NCBI GenBank assembly: GCA_037142195.1 | Contig: JBAXBA010000002.1 | Coordinates: 11,005-75,004 of the forward strand | Direction of reading: 5' to 3' | DNA length: 64,000 nucleotides | From: Pseudomonadota bacterium | Lineage (GTDB): Bacteria; Bdellovibrionota_B; Oligoflexia; Oligoflexales; CAIMVM01 | Part shown: piece by piece, positions 3,262 to 32,221 of the stretch | Layout: each line of letters starts with the position of its first letter | Position numbering within the stretch: the first letter of the stretch is position 1 | The notes under the pieces: model-generated | Seen by the model: only the letters and a program-made list of their open reading frames with translations | What the model was told of the DNA's origin: nothing | Database searches by the model: none | Program-made: the position numbers and the translations under genes

Positions 3262-3443
3262 AAGAAATATCCTCCAGTATCTGTTATTTTACACCAGATA
3301 CTGGAGATAAATCAATCCTTCTTTCGGCTTGCTTTATACTGACAAAAATGAGGCTGTCAGCCTCTTCCCCAAACTGCGTGACACTCTTTTTTCTAGCGGC
3401 CATTTAGCTTCCGACCTTACGGGCGAGATACTATCCTAGTTTA

Positions 3444-3746
3444 TTAAGATGACTTTTTCTTTGGCCGGCTTGATTTGACATGATCCAAAAGCACCATCCG
3501 CAGATACGGCTGGGAACCAAGGCCTTTCTCGCTAGCTAAACTTTTGAGCTGGGCGATAAGCTGCTTCGGTAATCGTACGGATATCACTTGAAGGCCCTTG
3601 GCCTCATCCATTTCTAGTTCCCTTTCGGAACTTATGGATTTAGCGTGTAGAGCGTCCGCACCTAACTCCCGCGACTCCCACTTCTCAACTGCATATTTCG
3701 GTGCAAGCCGGTCACTCAGGAAGGACCTTACTGAAGAAGGCCCCAA
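3444..3746 (-). CDS. CopG/RHH-type (BrnA-like) antitoxin, orphan copy; start uncertain
   Basis: EKWESRELGADALHAKSI..MDEAKGLQVISVRLPKQLIAQLKSLASEKGLGSQPYLRMVLLDHV is a close paralogue of 29972..30292. No toxin gene lies upstream. The 5' end runs into an AbiEi fragment. Confidence 0.5.
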   Translation of the reverse strand: MGPSSVRSFLSDRLAPKYAVEKWESRELGADALHAKSISSERELEMDEAKGLQVISVRLPKQLIAQLKSLASEKGLGSQPYLRMVLLDHVKSSRPKKKSS

Positions 3747-5216: not shown

Positions 5217-5951
5217 TGCTCCGCCCAAAACCATCCCTTCCAAAATTTAGTTCCAAATTCGGAATCTTCACGCTCTAGAGACTGTAATCGAAGAAGCACC
5301 TATGATTTTTTAAAAACTCTAAAACCATCTTTTTTATATCCCAGAATCCCTCTCTTCATAAACAGTTAAAATATTTAGGAAGTCACTTTGGGAAATCTCG
5401 TGAGAATCTACGTCCCAAAGATTTGATGATTTTTTTAGTCATGGGTCGCCCCATCAAGACTCCTCAAACATCACCCGCTCGAAAGTTATTATTTTGGTCG
5501 AACGGCTTCTTACCTTCTCCGCTCAGTGCTGATTTAACTCCGACAAGCTCTCCCAGTCCCAAAAGAGTAACCACCATCAATGGGCATTCCCTCTCCCTCA
5601 TGAAATAACAATGCGATCCGTAAAATCATGTTAGAAGCTGCCATTAAACGCGGCGTTTTACCCTGGCAAATAAGCTTGAAAACCAAGGTCCAAACAATCA
5701 ATCACTACTCAAACCTTTGGCGATGCGAGAATATCTGTAAAGACAAAGTATATGCCTTTATGCTAGCGGCTATCGGCAACAAATTGGTAGGGAATCGTCC
5801 TGGTCGATCTGAGCCCAGAAAAAGGAAACGAAGACCAAAACCCTCTAAAATTCTACATTGCAAAAGAAATGCTACTCGGGTAGATGCAGTGCCTGTACGC
5901 AAAAACCTAGAAAACCTGCAGTTAAAATTCGCTCAAACCAATGCGCAGTAA
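5217..5951 (+). mobile_element. Decayed IS4-type DDE transposase remnant (copy R1, most complete; C-terminal ORF 5628..5951)
   Basis: The ORF 5628..5951 ends in VGNRPGRSEPRKRKRRPKPSKIL, a typical IS4-family C-terminal tail. The same frame upstream reads NAIRKIM just after a TGA. Further upstream, broken frames give LYPR..LF.N and F.GKS.EN..R-like pieces. Left-hand parts recur at 10776, 12701, 27878 and 30719. Confidence 0.5.
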
Positions 5952-6062: not shown

Positions 6063-7394
6063 TTACTTCTTAATGTATTTCGTATTCTTGCCTTGTCCTA
6101 TTCGCTGAAGAATTCCCCGGCTTACGAGTTCAGACAAGGTGAAAGAAGCAGTTCGATCAGAAACTCCAGCAAGAACTAAATCGCGCTTATTTACTTCGAT
6201 TTTTTCCTGGAGAATCGCTAGAGCGGTTTCGACAGGCGATATCTGAGCTGAAAATACTTTTTTTCGGAACAGTATCACCTTAAAGCTCTTTGCCTGTTCC
6301 AAAAAGTTGGGATGCTGCAGATGGGCTGCTGCCAGGGCTCTTCTTGCTTCAAGAATTCCACTTCCAAGTTTTTCCATGAGCCTCAATTTACGTGCGAATT
6401 TTGTAATATGAATATTTCGAATCTGACTAGTACCATCACCTAAACTCTGAGCATAAATCGATGGCGGTAGCTCCCCTGGACTAAAGATTTCCAGTCGATC
6501 GTCGAAAATAGCAATTTTGACTGGACCAGCAATATTGTATTTTCTGTGAATTAGCGCGTTCAAAATCAGCCCCCTAAGCGCTAGCTCAGGAAAACATTCT
6601 TCTGGCCCGAATTTAACATGGTTCCTCAAGGTATAGTTAGAAGAGGTATATTCATTAATAAGCGAAATGGCCTCGTTCGACATCTTTCCCAAATTTCCAG
6701 ATAAATCATGTGACCTCACTATATCTCTGCCTGTGATTCCTCTAAATTTAGTGACAATAATTTCACTCTCGGGAACAAAACGTTGTGGCTCTAATCCGTA
6801 TACCATTAGCGCAGCCAGTGTCGGATAGTAGTCACCTGAAATGTCCTTGGCCAATACTCCCTCTCGTTCTAGATCTTTTTCAGAATACCCAGAGTAGATC
6901 TTTTTTAGCAGAGTCTGGTCTAAGTCTTTGATGCTTGCTTCATGAGAAGGAACTCGTGCGTCAAAGGGCTTCTCAAATGCTTGGAGCAGGAGGAGTTCTT
7001 TAAGGTCGTCCTCGGCTGGGCGAAGGGTTGAACGACCTGAACGAACATATACTCCTTGTGTAGATCCCTCGCTTTTCAAGAAATAGGGCTTGGCATTTCC
7101 CTGACTGACTTGTACTTCGAGAATATTTTTTCCCTATATATTTCTTACCAAAAGATTAGGAATAAGAAATGGATAAATAGATTGCGCGATTGTATTGCTG
7201 AACTCTTCCAAGAAATGATTTAGATCGTCATCACCTATCCCAACAATCTCACCGTCGTCCGAGACGCCTATAAATATGCTGCCACCTGATGTATTTGCAA
7301 ATGCGGCACAAGTCTTAAGGATTCCAGCTGAGGGCGTAAAATCTCGTTTGAATTCGCAATTTTTTCCCTCTGCATTAGGCATTAAAAATGTCAT
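6063..7394 (-). pseudogene. COG2865 'RecG-like' regulator (AlbA_2/Schlafen-like + HATPase_c_4 + wHTH) interrupted by one in-frame TAG
   Basis: The two track ORFs (7134..7394 and 6063..7079) are in the same frame. Read-through gives ..LLVRNI*GKNILEVQVSQGNAKPYFLKSEGSTQGVYVRSG.., colinear with the intact paralogue 22548..23897. The TAG is at 7134..7136. Family motifs are ILKTCAAFANTSGGSIFIGV and LRGLILNALIHRKY. Confidence 0.8.
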
Positions 7395-7678: not shown

Positions 7679-8851
7679 TCAGAAATATTTATCAAATCCA
7701 CCTTTCCACAAGACTTCGATAAAATCTCGGTAATAGTAGTTTTCTACATCTCCATAGGGACTGAGCTTTGTGATAGTATCTCGAGATACAACTATTGCCT
7801 TTCTTATTTTTGGCTCTATTTTTAAAAGCGAGCTGATGCTTTTAAAATGCCTGCTATTGAGGCGTTCGCTTGATTTTACCTCGATAGCAAAGGTCTCACC
7901 TAAAATAAAATCTACTTCTGATCCAGATTTCGTCCTCCAATAATTCAAACTAAGATTCAATTTTCTCGTATATGAAATGTAAGCTCGGAGCTCTAGTGCA
8001 ATAAGTTGCTCAAATTGATCGCCAAATTCCTTTGATTCTAGTTCGAGTGTAGAAAAACCTGCTAGATAATAGGAGACTCCACAATCAAAAAAATAGAATT
8101 TTGCCGTTGCTACTTGCTTTCGGCTTTTTAAACTATGTGCCGGCTCAACTTCAAATGCGATTAAAGTGTCTTTAAGAATCTGAAAATACTCTTTCGCCGT
8201 TGGACCACTAACCCCAGCGTCCGATGCAAATTGGGCATAGTTGACTTGTTGTCCATTGCAGAGAGCCGCACTTTTTAAAAATCGAGAAAAGGATTGTAGC
8301 TGTCGAATCTCGGATTCTCTTTGAATTTCTTCTTTCAAATACTCGCCACAATAGGCAGCAAGCTCTTCAAGAGGTTCGTCGGATAAGAAAGTCATGGGAA
8401 GACTTCCAAACTGTAATACTCGATTCAAGTCAAAATCATTTCCAACCTCATGTATAGTCAAGGGGAAAAGTTCGGCTCTTCTTGCTCTCCCACCAAGTAA
8501 ATTAGATTGATTTTTAAATAGCTTTCGAGCACTGCTACCTGTTAATAGAAAATGAAGCTTTGAGTCGATAGAGACTAATCGATGCACCTCATTGAGAATA
8601 TCAGGGATTCTTTGTACCTCATCAATGACCACTAATTTTTTGTCCGCTATCATTTGGCTAAGGTAAGTATTGTCTTGGAGTAGCCTCTGGTAAACTCTAT
8701 CGTCCAAAAGATTTATAAGACAAAAGTCTTCACCGGCGAAACAATCTGCGATGAGCGTGGATTTGCCAGTACCTCTTGCACCAAAAAGAAAGTGGCTTCT
8801 TTTTTTCAATAGTTCAAGTAGGTTAACGGACCTTTGGAATTTTCTAGTCAT
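7679..8851 (-). CDS. COG1373/DUF4143-type AAA+ ATPase with PD-(D/E)xK-like C-terminus
   Basis: This 390-aa ORF has Walker A GARGTGKST, Walker B VVIDEVQ, TGSSARKL and the C-terminal segment GSEVDFILGETFAIEVKSS. Confidence 0.85.
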   Translation of the reverse strand: MTRKFQRSVNLLELLKKRSHFLFGARGTGKSTLIADCFAGEDFCLINLLDDRVYQRLLQDNTYLSQMIADKKLVVIDEVQRIPDILNEVHRLVSIDSKLHFLLTGSSARKLFKNQSNLLGGRARRAELFPLTIHEVGNDFDLNRVLQFGSLPMTFLSDEPLEELAAYCGEYLKEEIQRESEIRQLQSFSRFLKSAALCNGQQVNYAQFASDAGVSGPTAKEYFQILKDTLIAFEVEPAHSLKSRKQVATAKFYFFDCGVSYYLAGFSTLELESKEFGDQFEQLIALELRAYISYTRKLNLSLNYWRTKSGSEVDFILGETFAIEVKSSERLNSRHFKSISSLLKIEPKIRKAIVVSRDTITKLSPYGDVENYYYRDFIEVLWKGGFDKYF

Positions 8852-9049: not shown

Positions 9050-9089
9050 AAAAAGTCCCGACCTTTTTGGAGTACGGTGTAAAATAGGC
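9050..9089. repeat. Half-copy of the 62-bp palindromic element at 29606..29667
   Basis: aaaaagtcccgacctttttggagtacggtgtaaaataggc compares with aaaaagtcgcgacttttttggagtacggtgtaaaataggc at 29628..29667. It lies 213 nt upstream of the ATPase start. Confidence 0.85.
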
Positions 9090-9222
9090 GTATTGGGTTT
9101 TAAATCCCGTTAAATAAAAAGCTATTTGCGCTATATAGCGGTTCAAACCTATCGAAATCGCCACATGAAACTTATACAAACCTTTGTATGTGCTTTTTGT
9201 ACATTTCCCACTTCTTCGATGC

Positions 9223-9409
9223 TAGGGACAATGCTTCAGAGCCAATAAATACATCACACCAGAATCTATGTAGTCCGGCCATGCGGCGCCACTGAAACGA
9301 AAGTTGTTCAACTAGGCGAGAGAACTCGAAAATTAGGTTCGTCTCCGGCTTATGCATTCTTGTGCAATTAGCCTTGCCTTGTGCATTCTTGTGCAATTAG
9401 CCTTGCCTT
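9223..9409. repeat. ~190-bp repeat Q (copy 1), ending in 2 x 29-bp tandem units (9352..9380 and 9381..9409)
   Basis: It is colinear with 22311..22505 (cttcagagccaa.aaatacatcacaccagaatcta...ggcgccactgaaa...ttcgtctccggctt.tgcattcttgtgcaatt). The tandem unit is (a/g)tgcattcttgtgcaattagccttgcctt. Confidence 0.85.
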
Positions 9410-10775: not shown

Positions 10776-10940
10776 CACCCATGATTTTTGAGAACTATAA
10801 AACCTTCCTTTTTGTATCCCAGAATCTATCTCTTCAAAAATAGGTAAAATATTTGGAATGCCATAGCATTAGTAGCAATCTCGTGAGAATCCACGTCCCA
10901 AAGATTTGATGATTTTTGAAGTCATGGGAGATCCCATCTT
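10776..10940 (+). repeat. IS4-type remnant, copy R2
   Basis: cacccatgatttttgaga.ct.taaaacc.tcctttttgtatcccagaatct.tctcttcaaaaa.aggtaaaatattt ... gtcccaaagatttgatgattttt is shared with R1, R4 and R5. Confidence 0.7.
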
Positions 10941-10969
10941 TACTCATTCACCAGCACTCGATCAAATGC

Positions 10970-12700: not shown

Positions 12701-13140
12701 TCTTTGATTTTTGTCTACTTTAAAACAATGCATTTTATATCCCAAAGCCGCCCTTTCCATAACAGGTAAAATATTTGTAAAGATATGACGCTTGTAGGGA
12801 TCTCATTTAAGCCAACTTCCATGATATTAATTAGTATTGCAATAGTGAGAGCTGAACCTTTAGTCTTTCAGTAGCATTCGATATAAAGTTACTATTTGGA
12901 CCAAACTCCGATCGTTCTCTACGCTCAGCAGTGATTTGGCATTAGCAAAATCCCTTTAATCTCAAAAAAGAACCACTATCAATGGGCATTCCCTCTCCCT
13001 CATGAAATAACTCATACTCCTTGGAATCACTCCACCCATCAGAGCAAAACCTGAAGACCTTCATCCATTGCCAGAGCTGCGGCTTTCAAAAGACTTTCCT
13101 CGTAGTTTGAAGATTGATTTCAGAATCGATAGTGTCAGCT
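12701..13140 (+). repeat. IS4-type remnant, copy R3 (diverged homologue of ~30800..31319)
   Basis: It is colinear with R5 at roughly 80% identity by eye (ttttatatcccaaa, aggtaaaatattt, aagttactatttgg, ccttggaatcactccacccatcagagcaaaacctgaa). Confidence 0.7.
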
Positions 13141-13521
13141 AGAGGGCATATAGTGGCCTTAAGTTCTGGGGGTGTCATGGAAGTGGTCCGTCAGAGCTGG
13201 CTTAGGATCTAGAAAAAGAGGAGGACATATGCCTTTTGGATCAGAAATTTTAGGCGGTATTTTAGTTGGCCTTGGCATGGCTATAACGCTCTTATATGAA
13301 AGTCAGATTTCAGGAGCGTCGGGCTATGCAGCGGCGAGCTTAAGACCAAGTCCTACCGGAAGAGCGGAGCTCTATTTTGTCGCAGGTCTCGTTTTGGCAG
13401 GGCTGATTTGGCGGTTTGCGGGAGGTCATCTGAGTGATGCTGATGAGAGTCATCTCGGAATTCCAGCCTGGATTCTTGCTGGGCTATTGGTGGGCTTTGG
13501 AGCCCGCTTAGGAGGAGGCTG
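13141..13521 (+). repeat. Near-perfect direct repeat of 31320..31699 (yeeE leader + first 98 codons)
   Basis: A base-by-base reading finds one extra G (ctggggg vs ctgggg) and two substitutions (ggaattcc/ggacttcc, ttcttgct/ttctagct) in 381 bp. Identity ends after ggaggaggctg. Confidence 0.95.
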
Positions 13522-22310: not shown

Positions 22311-22505
22311 TAGGGGCAATACTTCAGAGCCAACAAATACATCACACCAGAATCTAAGCAGTCCGGCTATGGGGCGCCACTGAAAGAAAGTTTTTCAACT
22401 AAGCGCGAACTCGAAAATGAGCTTCGTCTCCGGCTTGTGCATTCTTGTGCAATTGGCCTTGCCTTGTGCATTCTTGTGCATTATGATCTCCCTTGTGCAA
22501 TTAGC
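22311..22505. repeat. ~190-bp repeat Q (copy 2), forming the upstream region of the intact COG2865 gene
   Basis: It is colinear with 9223..9409. It contains three cttgtgca(a)tt-type direct repeats at ~22435-22505. Confidence 0.85.
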
Positions 22506-27877: not shown

Positions 27878-28066
27878 GCTGAACAACCCATGCCCTCTAT
27901 AATTTGGATCCAAATTCGAAGTCTTCACACTTCGGGGGTTAGTCTATAGCACCCATGATTTTTTTGACGACTCTAAAACCATCTTTTTTGTATCCCAGAA
28001 ACCATCTCTTCAAAAACAGGTAAAATATTTATGAAGGTATGGCACTTGTAGGAATATCGTGAAATC
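27878..28066 (+). repeat. IS4-type remnant, copy R4
   Basis: tctataatttggatccaaattcgaagtcttc.cact.cgggg..tagtctatagcacccatgattttt ... ttgtatccca...aaaaaca.gtaaaatatttatg..g.atggcacttgtaggaat is nearly identical to 30735..30900. Confidence 0.8.
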
Positions 28067-28101
28067 CCCCAGCTAAAGATGCAGCAAGTATTTTTTTAAT
28101 A

Positions 28102-28354
28102 CTACGGCCCCAGGACGCTATCATTCCAACTAAAGAAAGGCGTTGGCCATCTTTGGTTAAATGGCCGAGACTGGTGTTTGATTAACAGCTTTCCCACTGT
28201 CAAGTGGTCAGGCCATACGCCAGGATTCCAAACTTAGTTTTATCTTCATATAGCTCACTTGAATGGGTGCAGCATTACATTAGTCCTTATGGGTGACCGC
28301 GTTTAAAAGGGCCTCACGAAGAGCTTGATCAGGAACAGACGAGGAGGGATTCAT
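28102..28354 (-). pseudogene. Internal fragment of a COG2865 (HATPase_c_4) gene directly downstream of the ATPase gene
   Basis: MNPSSSVPDQALREALLNAVTHKD-stop carries the family signature REA..NA..H.DY, with Tyr replaced by TAA. Frameshifted pieces follow, APIQV...LSLESW and VWPDHLTVGKLLIKHQSRPFN (compare IEI.NPGgLp...t...l....S..RN). Confidence 0.55.
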
Positions 28355-28396
28355 GTCTTCCCCGCGTTTACCTCAAAACTCAAAATTAACTTTTAG

Positions 28397-29578
28397 TTAT
28401 CTCTCCCGAAGTGTGGAACTCAGAATACTAGAACATTTTTCTGGCAAAGACTGCAGCACATTCAAGGCAAAAGCCTCACCTATCGATAGGTGAGCAACGC
28501 CTCGAATAATCGATAAAGGTTGAGATTTGACCGAAAGCTGCCAAAGGTTGGTTACCGCCAACTTGCTACCAAAATATTGCAATGATTTATGGGACTCTGC
28601 ACGGGCATATTTACATTCTATCAGATCGAGTACTAAGCCATTTCGAACGACAGCAAAGTCAACTTCACGCTTTTCCTTATCTCGAATGTAACAAAGCTCA
28701 TATCGAAATCCATCTCGATCAGACAAAAATTGCAGACGTTTTAGGAGCGCACAGGCCAAAAGATTTTCTGAACGCGAACCAAGATCATCTACTCCATCTG
28801 CAACATCAAAGAAGTAAATTTTAGATTGCTTCTGTAAGGATCGAGAAATTTTATTTGAAAAAGGATAGACTCGAAATATAATATACATCCGCTCCAAGAC
28901 TTCTATCCAATGCTGAATCGTCTTATGGCTGACTTGAATCTCTTCAGCTAAATTATTGATCGAAATGGGACTTCCTACTCGCTCTCGAAGAAGTTCCAAA
29001 AGTAAATTGAGCCTTGAGATATCACGAACAGCTTCTAAGTCCCTAATGTCTTCCTTAATAACTTTTTCTGACCTTTCTAGTCGCCAGCGACGTGCCTCCC
29101 TTTCGTCATTTTGAAGGAATGGCTCAGGAAATCCTCCTAATAACATGATTCTTTCCACAACTTCTTGGGGAGAAAGTTTATCCACAATCTCATCTGGGGT
29201 AATGGGATGAAGACGCCAATGATGATAACGCCCCATTAAAGAGTCGCCACCCCGACGGTAGACATCTAAACGAGCGCTGCCAGTGACAAGAAAATTCTGA
29301 TGGGCAAGGCGTGTGTCGAATAGCCCTTTAACTTTGTTTTTCCAGTTTCGAAATTTGTGAATTTCATCAAATACGATAAGATTAGCAGATTCATCAATCT
29401 CTTCCTTAAGAATAGCTCGCTTTCCAGGAGTACTATCCCAATTGAGGTAGAGGCTAGTGGGGTAAAAGGCCATGATCTGCTTTGCCAGTGTGGTCTTGCC
29501 ACACTGCCTAGGACCAGAAAGAAAGACCATTTTCTTTTGCAAATCTTTTGTAATCTCTTTTTCTAGGTACCTTTTCAT
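28397..29578 (-). CDS. COG1373/DUF4143-type AAA+ ATPase with PD-(D/E)xK-like C-terminus (divergent subfamily)
   Basis: This 393-aa ORF has Walker A GPRQCGKTT, Walker B IVFDEIH, TGSARLDV and the C-terminal KREVDFAVVRNGLVLDLIECKYA. Confidence 0.85.
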   Translation of the reverse strand: MKRYLEKEITKDLQKKMVFLSGPRQCGKTTLAKQIMAFYPTSLYLNWDSTPGKRAILKEEIDESANLIVFDEIHKFRNWKNKVKGLFDTRLAHQNFLVTGSARLDVYRRGGDSLMGRYHHWRLHPITPDEIVDKLSPQEVVERIMLLGGFPEPFLQNDEREARRWRLERSEKVIKEDIRDLEAVRDISRLNLLLELLRERVGSPISINNLAEEIQVSHKTIQHWIEVLERMYIIFRVYPFSNKISRSLQKQSKIYFFDVADGVDDLGSRSENLLACALLKRLQFLSDRDGFRYELCYIRDKEKREVDFAVVRNGLVLDLIECKYARAESHKSLQYFGSKLAVTNLWQLSVKSQPLSIIRGVAHLSIGEAFALNVLQSLPEKCSSILSSTLRER

Positions 29579-29605
29579 GGTGAAATGCCCTCACTTAGGA
29601 GTTTG

Positions 29606-29667
29606 CCTATTTTACACCGTACTCCAAAAAAGTCGCGACTTTTTTGGAGTACGGTGTAAAATAGGCT
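29606..29667. repeat. Perfect 62-bp palindrome (31-bp arms, no loop, centre tcgcga)
   Basis: gcctattttacaccgtactccaaaaaagtcg|cgacttttttggagtacggtgtaaaataggc. All 31 pairs were checked by hand. It lies 28 nt upstream of the ATPase start and 10 nt downstream of the preceding ORF. Confidence 0.95.
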
Positions 29668-29676
29668 GATTTTGCC

Positions 29677-29931
29677 TTAACTCACTTTAAATAATGAGCT
29701 TTTTGACCTAGGTAACAACTCAAACTCCCAAAAAAATACCGCTAGGCTAAGGGGGCAGCATCCGAAAAAACTCGGTTTTCGGGGATGGGGCCCGGCCTTA
29801 CTGAAGAAAGCCCAAGTAAAACCCCGGGCTGAAATTATGTTTTGGTCGAGGACATCGGCGTAAGCATCACGCAGCCATTCAAAGTCTTCGATTTCATCCG
29901 AGCCTCTGCTCCCCTTTTTTCTACGAACCAT
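29677..29931 (-). pseudogene. ORF carrying an AbiEi N-terminal fragment; probably not functional
   Basis: IISARGFTWAF matches the AbiEi N-terminus (SISAQGFAWAF). The remainder has no recognisable domain and is low-complexity. Confidence 0.3.
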
Positions 29932-29971
29932 TTTGCTCCTAATGTCAAATACAAGACCTTACCGAAATTCA

Positions 29972-30292
29972 TTAAGACGACTTTTTCTTTGGGCTGCTTG
30001 ATTTGACATGATCCAAAAGCACCATCCGAAGATACGGCTGGTAACCTAGTCCCTTCTCGCCAGCTAAACTTTTGAGCTGGGCGATAAGCTGCTTCGGTAA
30101 TCGTACGGATATCACTTGAAGGCCCATGGCCTCATCCATTTCTAGTTCACTTTCGGAATTTATGGGTTTAGCGTGTTGAGCGTCCGCACCTAGCTCCCGC
30201 GACTCCCACTTCTCCACATCGTGGAGATTGTCAGGTTTGGTATCCCGGGAAATTCGTCGCATAAATCTTCTCCTCTTGCATGTTAGGCTCAT
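29972..30292 (-). CDS. CopG/RHH-type (BrnA-like) antitoxin; start uncertain
   Basis: EKWESRELGADAQHAKPINSESELEMDEAMGLQVISVRLPKQLIAQLKSLAGEKGLGYQPYLRMVLLDHV. It overlaps the upstream BrnT-like gene. Confidence 0.55.
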   Translation of the reverse strand: MSLTCKRRRFMRRISRDTKPDNLHDVEKWESRELGADAQHAKPINSESELEMDEAMGLQVISVRLPKQLIAQLKSLAGEKGLGYQPYLRMVLLDHVKSSSPKKKSS

Positions 30293-30533
30293 AAGCTGTC
30301 TTTAAGACAAACTGTTTGAACTTCTTGTCGAACAAAAAAACCACTTTAAGTTTTCGACCAGAGTCCGTTTCTGCAATGAACCACCGCGTCGGCGGGAAGG
30401 TTCGATTCTCCGCACGGTCATCAATTAGGCTGCCATATAGTTTATTCTGAAAGCATTCCAGAACCTCACCAGGCATAACTCCATGCTTTTTTTGCAGCTT
30501 TTTCTAGGCTGTGGGATCGATATGGAGATTCAT
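30231..30533 (-). pseudogene. BrnT/DUF497-like toxin gene with an in-frame TAG at codon 10 (or an N-terminally shortened CDS 30231..30476)
   Basis: ATG 30533 gives MNLHIDPTA-TAG-KKLQKKHGVMPGEVLECF... in the same frame as the track ORF. KHGV and the C-terminal KTAYEPNMQEEKIY resemble BrnT hallmarks (N..KHGV; ISAR.A...E...Y). Confidence 0.5.
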
Positions 30534-30718
30534 ACGCGACCCCTATTCCACTTGTAATACAAGAGAAATATATAAGCAATACAATGTATATTTGAAGAAC
30601 CGGTCAAAATATTAGCGATATTTCATATCCTATTGATTTTAATCATTTTTTGTAAATCCCCAGAGGGTAAGTGATAAGAAAAATTACTGCTTTATTAAAA
30701 AATTGAATGCCTCTCTAT

Positions 30719-31319
30719 GCTGGTACCAAAACCCATTCCTTCTATAATTTGGATCCAAATTCGAAGTCTTCGCACTCCGGGGGGTAGTCTATAGCACCCA
30801 TGATTTTTGAGAGCTTTACAACCTTCCATTTTGTATCCCAAATACAGCCATTGCAAAAACAAGTAAAATATTTATGGCGGCATGGCACTTGTAGGAATCA
30901 CGTGAAAATCCACATCCCTAAGTTTTGATGATTTTTTTAGTCATGAGTGGCCCCATCAAGACTCCTCCAACATCACACGCTCGAAAGTTACTATTTTGGC
31001 CGAACGTCCTCTCGCCCTCTCCGCTCGGTGCTGATTTATCTCGGTCAAGCTCTTCCAGTCCCTCTCCTTGGACTCGCGCGTATCATGGGGGAACAACCAT
31101 TCGGGTAGCGATTGGCAACCGCAAGTTCCCACAATCATCAAAAGATGAACCACCATCAAATGTCCTTCCATCTGATTCATGAAAGAGTTCGCTCCCCCCT
31201 TGGAATCACTCCACCCATCAGAGCAAAACCTGAAAACCTCCATCCATTACCAGAGCTACAGCTTTCAAAGGACTTGGCTCTTTTTTTGGAGTTTGATTTC
31301 ATAATCGACAGTGTCAGCT
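30719..31319 (+). repeat. IS4-type remnant, copy R5, immediately upstream of yeeE
   Basis: It shares its left part with R4 and R1, its middle with R1 (gtcatg.gtg.ccccatcaagactcct.caacatcac.cgctcgaaagtta.tattttgg) and its right part with R3. Confidence 0.75.
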
Positions 31320-31406
31320 AGAGGGCATATAGTGGCCTTAAGTTCTGGGGTGTCATGGAAGTGGTCCGTCAGAGCTGGCTTAGGATCTAGAAAAAGAGGA
31401 GGACAT

Positions 31407-31817
31407 ATGCCTTTTGGATCAGAAATTTTAGGCGGTATTTTAGTTGGCCTTGGCATGGCTATAACGCTCTTATATGAAAGTCAGATTTCAGGAGCGTCGG
31501 GCTATGCAGCGGCGAGCTTAAGACCAAGTCCTACCGGAAGAGCGGAGCTCTATTTTGTCGCAGGTCTCGTTTTGGCAGGGCTGATTTGGCGGTTTGCGGG
31601 AGGTCATCTGAGTGATGCTGATGAGAGTCATCTCGGACTTCCAGCCTGGATTCTAGCTGGGCTATTGGTGGGCTTTGGAGCCCGCTTAGGAGGAGGCTGC
31701 ACCAGCGGACACGGTGTCTGTGGACTTGGCCGGCTTTCTCACCGCTCCCTAGCAGCTGTACTTATTTTTATGGCCTTCGCTTTTTTAACGGCAGCCGTCA
31801 TGAGGATTTATTTATGA
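31407..31817 (+). CDS. YeeE/YedE-family membrane protein (sulfur-compound transport), first half-size subunit
   Basis: The ATG lies 4 nt after AGGAGG. The body is hydrophobic, with the family motif GARLGGGCTSGHGVCG. Confidence 0.8.
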   Translation: MPFGSEILGGILVGLGMAITLLYESQISGASGYAAASLRPSPTGRAELYFVAGLVLAGLIWRFAGGHLSDADESHLGLPAWILAGLLVGFGARLGGGCTSGHGVCGLGRLSHRSLAAVLIFMAFAFLTAAVMRIYL

Positions 31818-32221
31818 GACAAGGCGTCTATTTAGCTTCTGGTCTTATTTTTGGTTTAGGACTCGCCATCTCCCAGATGGTCGATCCTCTCAAGGTAAAA
31901 AGTTTTTTAGCATTAGGGACTCCCGACTGGAACCCAGCTCTGATGTTTGTTTTAGGATCCGCGGCACCTACCTATTACCTGGCTTTTTTATACTTAAACC
32001 GGCGCCAGAAATCGTTTGACGGGAAACCCTTTCCTCATCCGACTCCTAGGCCCATCGATAAAAAACTTGTGGCGGGTTCGGTGCTGTTTGGGATCGGTTG
32101 GGGGATAGCAGGGGTTTGTCCTGGACCAGCTCTTTTTCACTTAGCTTACCTGGATGAGCAGTTTTTTCTCTTTATCGTCATGATGGTTCTAGGCTTCGAA
32201 CTTCAAAGGAAACTCATTTGA
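31814..32221 (+). CDS. YeeE/YedE-family membrane protein, second half-size subunit
   Basis: This 135-aa hydrophobic ORF is coupled by a 4-nt overlap. The motif GSVLFGIGWGIAGVCPGPA is typical of the paired subunit. Confidence 0.7.
   Translation: MRQGVYLASGLIFGLGLAISQMVDPLKVKSFLALGTPDWNPALMFVLGSAAPTYYLAFLYLNRRQKSFDGKPFPHPTPRPIDKKLVAGSVLFGIGWGIAGVCPGPALFHLAYLDEQFFLFIVMMVLGFELQRKLI

Follow-up and report, generated by a model that had tools for sequence, protein, structure and literature searches.

A perfect 62-bp palindrome before a DUF4143 ATPase gene as a possible doubled promoter-operator element

Introduction

Why does a perfect, spacerless palindrome of 62 bp stand a few nucleotides before the start codon of an ATPase gene, and what, if anything, does it do there? 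The question is raised by a 64,000-nt stretch of DNA (contig JBAXBA010000002.1, positions 11,005 to 75,004, of assembly GCA_037142195.1; hereafter the window, which means the whole stretch analysed) from the metagenome-assembled genome of a bacterium of the Oligoflexales (Bdellovibrionota_B), in which an initial annotation, made from the letters alone, had singled out the palindrome. The gene beside it, here called ATPase3 (28397-29578, minus strand), encodes a protein composed of an AAA_14 domain, a helix-turn-helix (HTH) segment and a DUF4143 domain of the PD-(D/E)xK type (Pfam), and matches the PADLOC candidate defence family PDC-S01; its product is 100% identical to NCBI MEI8024952.1, itself from a 94.7-kb contig of a 'Pseudomonadota bacterium' metagenome-assembled genome. 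The DUF4143/COG1373 ATPases are extremely widespread and uncharacterised: one homology search at E <= 1e-20 retrieved nearly 8,000 relatives, no functional study was found in the literature on DUF4143, COG1373 or PDC-S01, no solved structure matched these ATPases in sequence, and DUF4143 has been placed in the PD-(D/E)xK superfamily with its function listed as unknown (PMC3424549).

The reading favoured here, to which we give about an even chance, is that the palindrome consists of two inverted copies of a conserved cis element of ~35 nt containing a core promoter, and would serve as the symmetric operator of ATPase3. The element is probably a regulatory site doubled by a copying error, a known and fairly ordinary kind of element, here of unusual length and perfection. 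If the palindrome is indeed an operator or cognate site, it would provide a defined DNA ligand for an uncharacterised ATPase-nuclease family and a simple regulatory model, namely autoregulation via an internal winged-helix domain; this lead to the DNA ligand and regulatory logic of a very common family is the main value of the locus.

The Palindrome and Its Orthologues

The inverted repeat occupies positions 29605-29666 of the window (no strand), one base to the left of the position initially given for it (29606-29667), the two arms of 31 nt (29605-29635, proximal to the ATPase gene, and 29636-29666, distal) being 100% complementary with a 0-nt spacer, and the centre, GTCGCGAC, containing the tcgcga noted there. 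The edge of the palindrome lies 26 nt from the ATG of ATPase3, instead of the 28 nt first counted; the intervening 26-nt leader (29579-29604, minus strand) carries a Shine-Dalgarno sequence, GAGGG, read from the sequence at 29592-29588. In the whole window this is the sole long perfect palindrome, the next-best inverted repeats being 74-83% complementary; its folding energy as single-stranded DNA is -33.2 kcal/mol, compared to -6.5 +/- 2.0 for its shuffles (z = -13), and, by our own arithmetic, the chance expectation of a perfect 62-bp palindrome in 64 kb is ~1e-14.

Among 185,579 species genomes, an arm 20-mer matched exactly at one locus, the orthologue L001 (the loci compared are numbered L001, L002, and so on). 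Orthologous loci from other samples were recovered via a cluster of 98%-identical proteins, and in loci of at least three other samples (L001, L002, and L004/L005) the palindrome is again found 26 nt before the orthologous ATG; a further copy is present in L006. In L001 both arms are perfect around the centre GTCATGAC, which is also the centre in L004 and L005, where the distal arm carries one A-to-G change; in L002 the centre is GTCGAGAC and the proximal arm carries one G-to-A change, the same change being present in the part of the arm retained by L003. In L001, L004, and L005 the palindrome is bordered by this ATPase gene and, on its other side, by the 170-nt block present in the window; L002 includes just 7 nt past the distal arm, and the genes of a 79-kb JGI contig are spaced in the same way. 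Since orthologous loci of other samples carry the palindrome between the same two flanks and with variants of their own, it exists in nature and is not an artefact of assembly. The block formed by ATPase3, the palindrome and 170 nt beyond it (27950-29836) is 94.8% identical in L001, where it has different neighbours; synteny breaks at 27950 and at 29836, not at the palindrome.

A Single Arm at a Paralogous Locus and the Origin of the Palindrome

One arm recurs elsewhere in the window, as the initial annotation had recognised (9050-9089): the 24-mer TTTGGAGTACGGTGTAAAATAGGC is found exactly at 9066-9089, with no other match in the window at <=3 mismatches and 0 expected by chance, and the 31-mer arm aligns to 9059-9089 with one mismatch (30/31), bringing the arm copies of the window to three, two in the palindrome and one solo. 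The solo copy (9059-9089, plus strand) is oriented like the distal arm and lies ~200 nt upstream of ATPase1 (7679-8851, minus strand), a paralogous DUF4143 ATPase gene whose product is 22% identical to ATPase3 and whose named homologues are mostly from Legionellales, Coxiellaceae, and other Gammaproteobacteria. It is kept at the orthologous loci L008 and L009, in both of which it is 31/31 identical to the palindrome arm. The two loci of the window are homologous over ~8 nt past the dyad centre, one arm, and then ~65 nt more, the flank of the solo arm (9090-9150, plus strand) being ~70% similar to 29667-29726, with the common islands TTAAATAA, CTATTTG, and TCAAAC; the conserved block of the paralogous locus shares its boundary with the arm. 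The leaders of the two genes are also alike, CCTAAGTGAGGG for ATPase3 and CTAAAGTAGAGG for the paralogue. Small open reading frames (ORFs) that cross the palindrome or follow the solo arm were considered and rejected, as they are not conserved between the loci.

At its inner end the solo arm forms a short inverted repeat of 8 nt, AAAAAGTC-CC-GACCTTTTT (9050-9068, no strand), which is the likely seed of the long palindrome. Nothing resembling a second arm was found at the ATPase1 locus beyond GACTTTTT (P = 0.98 vs shuffles), and a decayed second arm was rejected on these grounds. Because the ATPase1 locus has just this 8-nt inverted repeat at its centre (AAAAAGTC..GACTTTTT), in comparison with the 100% complementary arms of the palindrome, an origin by inverted-repeat expansion is proposed: the ancestral single copy would have ended in a short 8-nt hairpin, a state still seen upstream of ATPase1, and in a template switch during replication the nascent strand would have folded on this hairpin and copied its own arm, generating the perfect 31-nt arms before ATPase3. 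Template switching has been described to homogenise and lengthen the arms of repeats, promoters included (PMC7202029; PMC13100816), and the present case resembles those in the short seed hairpin at the paralogous locus, the long perfect arms and the location in a promoter region; it differs from them in that the event, its direction included, is deduced here from one paralogous comparison only. The opposite direction, the loss of one arm at the ATPase1 locus, is also conceivable. On the expansion reading, the locus offers a clean natural example of inverted-repeat expansion creating a symmetric promoter region, with the unexpanded state at a paralogous locus of the same genome.

What Is Conserved: The Arm or the Symmetry

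Among the window, L001, and L004, only 1/58 arm sites varies, vs 64/491 of the other non-coding sites of the module (Fisher P = 0.004), and the two central bases vary freely (GC, AT, GA); between the window and L001 these two are the sole variable positions of the palindrome. The only symmetric change, GC-to-AT, falls in these central bases, in what would be the loop of a hairpin and, being shared by the sister lineages L001 and L004, represents a single event. A comparable contrast is seen at the solo arm, where the window and L008 differ at 1/37 sites, compared to 53/209 (25%) in the flanks (P = 0.0006); a single arm thus conserved appears to be functional by itself, one copy being sufficient. 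Since the solo arm is conserved at a paralogous locus without a long hairpin, the constrained unit is, on the evidence of these alignments, the arm sequence and not the formation of a hairpin.

The divergence of the palindrome between lineages (1-4/62 positions) is like that of the third codon positions of the adjacent gene (3.3-7.4%), and a still-perfect palindrome in one lineage is therefore unremarkable; by our own arithmetic, if each lineage has changed by ~2.5-5%, roughly 5-20% of lineages should retain a stretch of 62 nt intact with no maintenance at all. The claim that such a palindrome would be unstable in bacteria unless maintained was accordingly an overstatement, the more so as other lineages carry uncompensated mismatches in their arms.

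A Predicted Promoter and Operator

Promoter-like sites were sought with a crude sigma-70 weight matrix of our own making, over stretches of 95-397 nt upstream of the ATPase gene. The site formed by the dyad centre and the hexamer TAAAAT ranked first among the sigma-70-like sites of L001, L002, and L004 and second among those of the window. Its -10-like TAAAAT lies in the proximal arm (29605-29635, minus strand) at 29614-29609 and ends 30 nt before the ATG of ATPase3; the -35-like hexamer, GCGACT in the window (29631-29636, minus strand, 16 nt from the -10), sits on the dyad centre and reads ATGACT in L001 and L004 and TCGAGA, at 18 nt, in L002, the spacer being 16-18 nt overall. Similar distances are found at the paralogues, the best site of ATPase1 ending 31 nt before the start codon and the second-best of ATPase2 28 nt before it; indeed, the ATPase1 gene has a promoter-like site of its own, together with an inverted repeat with 11-bp arms near its start. 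This geometry is suggestive only, since the site is absent from a stricter consensus promoter scan. Reading the arm as a sigma-54 site (GG-N10-GC) was rejected by inspection, with 4 of ~12 consensus positions matched.

The downstream gene encodes, as is the case for many dyad operators, an HTH protein. The ATPase3 product matches HTH_11 at residues 189-231 (E = 1.4e-5, Pfam) and two HTH-type PADLOC models, WYL at residues 186-233 and the broader Csa3 at 162-253; a homologue from Spirosoma (L058) carries the annotation of an ArsR-family regulator. The translation also retains D307 and E321-x-K323, E305-V306-D307 being invariant across 26 homologues, and the nuclease motif appears intact.

From these elements the following scheme may be proposed. 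A conserved cis-regulatory element of ~35 nt, with the core GCCTATTTTACACCGTACTCCAAAAAAGTCG, would be present in two inverted copies as the palindrome; the proximal arm and the centre would constitute the core promoter, with the -35 at the dyad centre and the -10 TAAAAT ending 30 nt before the ATG, and would be followed by a leader of roughly 20-25 nt with the GAGGG ribosome-binding site. The symmetric 62-bp site would then act as the operator of the ATPase3 gene, its likeliest binder being the winged-helix domain of ATPase3 itself or a partner regulator, and the outcome would be the autoregulation of a potentially toxic ATPase-nuclease. The distal arm (29636-29666, plus strand) is a mirror copy of the proximal element which points away from the ATPase gene and is continuous with the flank common to the 9059-9150 copy; by symmetry, it would be a mirror promoter or an operator half-site facing away from the gene.

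The arrangement recalls the operators of autorepressors (antitoxin, controller-protein, and ArsR/MarR-type), in which a dyad overlies the -35 and -10 of the adjacent gene, as is predicted here, and an HTH protein is encoded directly downstream; the conserved arms with a variable centre and the setting among toxin-antitoxin and defence genes are further likenesses. It departs from them in the length of the perfect 62-bp dyad, two to three times that of usual operators, and in the conservation of one arm without its partner at another locus; the presumed binder, too, is a large AAA+/wHTH/PD-(D/E)xK protein instead of a small repressor. Some resemblance is also apparent to bidirectional promoters derived from symmetry, as the perfect symmetry predicts equivalent promoter-like sites on both strands, with -10 elements at 29614-29609 (minus) and 29657-29662 (plus). 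In the bidirectional cases of Warman et al. 2021, however, the -10 elements reportedly overlap, with starts about 18 bp apart; here they are 42 nt apart with a common -35 region, and there is no divergent gene at the locus.

Long Inverted Repeats before Other DUF4143 ATPase Genes

Other genes of the family carry long inverted repeats, unrelated in sequence, in the same place. A second ATPase gene of L002, from the same population as the window, is preceded by a perfect 17+2+17 repeat 22 nt before its ATG; the Spirosoma plasmid gene annotated as an ArsR family regulator (L058) has a 21+1+21 repeat (1456-1499) overlapping the ATG; and the repeats of three further loci abut the ATG, namely a 36-bp near-perfect palindrome with one mismatch on the IMG/VR contig L038 (1396-1431), a 37-bp near-perfect repeat with 17-bp arms and a 3-nt spacer on the IMG/VR contig L018 (1467-1503), and a repeat with 13-bp arms on a Granulicella plasmid (L064, 1422-1452). 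In the plasmid loci L059, L061, and L063 the upstream region contains arrays of direct repeats instead of inverted repeats. Between L018 and L056, whose proteins are 74% identical, the repeat arms are kept, and the spacer and everything further upstream are unalignable.

The frequency of such repeats was assessed in 43 non-redundant ATPase loci, by comparing repeats in the interval -80..+3 with 300 shuffles and using as controls 100 genes of the same loci with an intergenic upstream region. A repeat beating all 300 shuffles was found at 8/43 ATPase loci vs 6/100 controls (Fisher P = 0.025), and one at p <= 0.05 at 13/43 vs 13/100 (Fisher P = 0.015); the enrichment, in these small samples, is real but modest. 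A bolder proposal, which we regard as improbable, is that the whole DUF4143/COG1373 family is coupled to a cognate long palindrome at its 5' end, a site that would go beyond an operator and, as duplex or as cruciform/hairpin, be the DNA on which the protein would load or which it would sense, for instance as a sensor of supercoiling or infection licensing the nuclease; the 62-bp palindrome would then be the clearest natural example.

A separate observation concerns translation. In L018, L038, L058, L064, and L043 (~1394-1416) the long inverted repeat reaches exactly to the start codon or into it, so that a Shine-Dalgarno sequence would have no space; this suggests leaderless or otherwise unusual initiation, or start codons that have been wrongly called.

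Weighing the Operator Reading and Its Alternatives

The operator reading draws on four lines of evidence: the arms have changed less than the non-coding DNA around them, the best promoter-like site is overlaid on the palindrome, ATPase3 contains an HTH, and repeats recur in the same place across the family. Among the three options raised in the initial annotation it is the dimeric operator that is favoured, the mobile-element terminus and the recombinase site having fared poorly (see below). Several considerations weigh against it all the same. When the arms are compared with the third codon positions of the adjacent gene, and not with non-coding DNA, the difference is not significant (1/58 vs 27/394, P = 0.10), and the apparent constraint may come in part from fast-evolving or recombinant flanks; both arm mutations (distal in L004, proximal in L002/L003) are uncompensated, so that strict symmetry is not under strong selection. 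The palindrome site is missing from the stricter promoter scan, which covered 28300-31300, and the predicted -35 is weak (3-4/6 positions) and was found with a crude, self-made matrix. A dimeric operator, moreover, is normally much shorter than 62 bp; the family-wide enrichment is only about three-fold, in small samples, and one control match shares its palindrome with an ATPase; and the solo arm faces away from ATPase1 at a distance of 200 nt, a placement for which the reading does not account.

The same uncompensated mutations in L004 and L002/L003 are to be expected if the palindrome is a neutral by-product, functionless as such and young, which persists for lack of time to decay, any promoter activity being that of one arm; this account is doubtful in our view, and the best placed of the alternatives. 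It agrees with the divergence of 1-4/62 positions, similar to that of third codon positions (3.3-7.4%), with the roughly 5-20% of lineages in which an unchanged 62-mer is expected, with the paralogous locus, which works with a single arm, and with a template-switch mechanism that is well documented. It accounts poorly for the observation that both arms, the distal one too, are far better conserved than the neighbouring non-coding DNA, for the coincidence of the arm edge with the edge of the conserved block at the paralogous locus, and for the recurrence, in the same place before other genes of the family, of long inverted repeats unrelated in sequence. Some cost would also be expected, as 62 bp is above the lower limit of 20-36 bp for hairpin cleavage by SbcCD in vitro (PMC4245961).

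It is unlikely that the palindrome acts as an RNA hairpin in read-through transcripts of the upstream BrnT/BrnA operon, be it a site for RNase III, a roadblock to polymerase or ribosome, or a stability element, any of which would uncouple the ATPase gene from transcription upstream. The predicted hairpin, of 29 pairs and a 4-nt loop, is part of a fold of 301 nt with z = -8.6, the genes upstream have the same orientation, and the distal-arm change of L004 becomes a G-U pair in the ATPase-sense RNA; the change of L002, instead, produces a C-A mismatch in the same RNA, the solo arm is conserved without a long hairpin, the upstream neighbours vary between genomes, and there is no U-tract after the stem and no entry for the palindrome in the terminator scan. 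Neither an Rfam family match nor covariation was found: Rfam at gathering thresholds had no match in the whole window, which contains no detectable tRNA or tmRNA, and RNAalifold on the arm with 100 nt of flank (five sequences, both strands) gave about -6 to -7 kcal/mol with positive, i.e., unfavourable, covariation and no convincing structure, the sole feature being a small TTTGA..TCAAA hairpin.

Somewhat less probable still is a role of the palindrome as a DNA structure (hairpin or cruciform), either as the substrate of a recombinase or of the adjacent PD-(D/E)xK ATPase, or as the end or junction of a mobile element (attC-like, abutted terminal repeats or telomere-resolvase-type). The homology with the 9050 copy ends ~8 nt past the dyad centre, as would be expected of a breakpoint at the centre, toxin-antitoxin and defence modules have been shuffled into a mosaic around it, and the nuclease motif of the ATPase appears intact; telomere resolvases, furthermore, cut perfect palindromes of 40-60 bp. 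On the other hand, the same sequences stand on each side in all assemblies that have both flanks, the module boundaries being at 27950 and 29836; no integrase, transposase or protelomerase was found among the ~40 ORFs scanned; there is no GTTRRRY core, no extrahelical base and no target-site duplication; and exact-pattern scans and BLAST located the arm in public collections only at orthologous loci, with no match to the arm patterns in two metagenome-contig scans, one viral scan, and a blastn search of plasmids and phages.

The known classes of intergenic inverted repeats able to form hairpins, i.e., repetitive extragenic palindromic (REP) elements and their mosaic (BIME) arrays, attC sites and intrinsic terminators, share that ability with the palindrome, which differs from them in being low-copy, lineage-restricted and perfect, with no GTTRRRY core, integrase or U-tract. 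An intrinsic terminator had rightly been excluded from the outset: the stem of 29-31 bp is A/T-rich, the T6 run is inside the stem, which is followed by AAACTCC or TGATTTT, and the terminator scan of 28300-31300 does not list the palindrome. A REP/BIME assignment, envisaged in the initial annotation as a common genome-wide repeat, was rejected, since the arm has three copies in the window and one orthologous locus in 185,579 genomes, that is, low copy number and orthologous loci only, and the repeat is a perfect 62 bp and not an imperfect 20-40 nt. An integron attC is contradicted by the ends (GCCTATT/AATAGGC), the bulge-free pairing, the lack of RYYYAAC ... GTTRRRY cores, the lack of a recombinase domain in the ~40 ORFs and the location at the 5' end of a gene instead of 3' of a cassette ORF; a terminal repeat of a miniature transposable element (MITE) or insertion sequence (IS), by flanks without a direct repeat (..gagttt before GCC..GGC and tgattt.. 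after it in the window; ..gtgtat and gcattg.. in L001) and by the absence of other copies. As for a telomere-resolvase site, the palindrome itself has the required form, but none of the ~40 ORFs scanned resembles a protelomerase or a tyrosine recombinase, and in the assemblies with both sides the palindrome is internal, with a different sequence on each side.

That an assembler created or perfected the palindrome is very improbable: the window does come from a metagenome-assembled genome, bubble-popping could remove a single arm mismatch, and contigs do fold back (L006) or terminate (L003, L007) at the palindrome, but L001, L002, L004, and L005, from at least three other samples, cross it with distinct sides and with centre and arm variants of their own, and the 79-kb JGI contig has the same gene spacing, so that the suspicion of an artefact voiced in the initial annotation can be set aside. 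The contig L006 (ena:ERZ19568283 scaffold_30166) is in itself instructive, being an exact mirror image of 4,340 nt centred on the palindrome (0 mismatches when compared with its reverse complement), best explained as a fold-back by the assembler which doubled two genes in inverted order; L003 and L007 terminate inside the palindrome. A caution follows for the metagenome assembly of such islands, where a palindrome breaks or mirrors contigs (L003, L006, L007).

The Flanking Block and the Genomic Island

The 170-nt block beside the palindrome (29667-29836, no strand) moves with the palindrome and the ATPase gene among related genomes and diverges fast (15-20%); no conserved RNA structure was found in it, its second GC-rich hairpin being disrupted in L001 and L004. 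The preceding ORF that the initial annotation had placed 10 nt away does lie at that distance (29677-29931, minus strand, 84 aa), and it has no Pfam or NCBIfam match; because homology to the related loci stops within it, at 29836, it is probably not a gene. Exactly at this upstream edge of the conserved ATPase module, at 29810-29836, the minus strand contains a G+C-rich hairpin, AGCCCGGGGTTTTACTTGGGCT, followed by TTCTTC; it is plausible that it represents a terminator insulating the module from the DNA upstream, although the consensus terminator scan did not call it.

The palindrome lies within a mosaic of toxin-antitoxin and defence genes (window 1-31300), nearly all on the minus strand, which adjoins core genes (yedE-like, DUF6691, TauE) and a polysaccharide cluster. 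The mosaic comprises several AbiE-type toxin/antitoxin genes, RES-Xre, an ORF with a weak HEPN domain, two COG2865/Schlafen-AlbA_2 genes, and three DUF4143 ATPases (PADLOC PDC-S01); a BrnA-like CopG antitoxin gene with a BrnT-like ORF upstream is our own reading, the family match being for the CopG domain only. An intergenic repeat of 100-300 nt, with 73-84% identity, occurs in five copies between modules (5225-5560, 10776-10966, 12705-12804, 27885-28080, and 30726-31062), and breakpoints of module shuffling relative to L001, such as 27950, fall inside it; it may be the recombination substrate from which the island was built. The possibility that this repeat ('RepA') is an attC-like site was rejected, as it has no dyad beyond 7 nt and there is no integrase among the ~40 ORFs scanned.

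Two duplications were noted. The 5' part of the yedE-like gene with its upstream region is present twice at 93% identity (12958-13521 and 31133-31699), the second copy inside the island beside the intergenic repeat, which suggests that repeated insertions or recombination events at the junction with yedE enlarged the island; the region of the BrnA-like CopG antitoxin is likewise duplicated at 93% identity (3440-3689 and 29968-30217, 26 kb apart), a sign of recent duplication within the island.

DUF4143 ATPase genes repeatedly adjoin genes of the COG2865 type (Schlafen AlbA_2, HATPase_c_4, and wHTH), located downstream or divergently (window 6063-7394 with 7679-8851; L006 2228-4089; L008 551-5336), and the two may form a two-gene system; the COG2865 copy at 6063-7394 of the window appears to be split by a frameshift. 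At 9340-9400 the motif TAATTGCACAAGAATGCACAAGG occurs twice in tandem; it is kept in L008 (1925-2000) before an intact divergent COG2865 gene, and in the window the RES toxin gene overlaps it with its 3' end. The 5' region of the window's intact COG2865 gene (22311-22480) matches the stretch 9223-9395 at 90% identity, and this stretch looks like a stranded operator or promoter remnant. Lastly, the yedE-like core gene is ~86% identical between L001 (1-392) and the window (31430-31818), the ATPase module ~95% and the RES-Xre module ~90%; the defence modules may have been exchanged between lineages more recently than the core genomes diverged.

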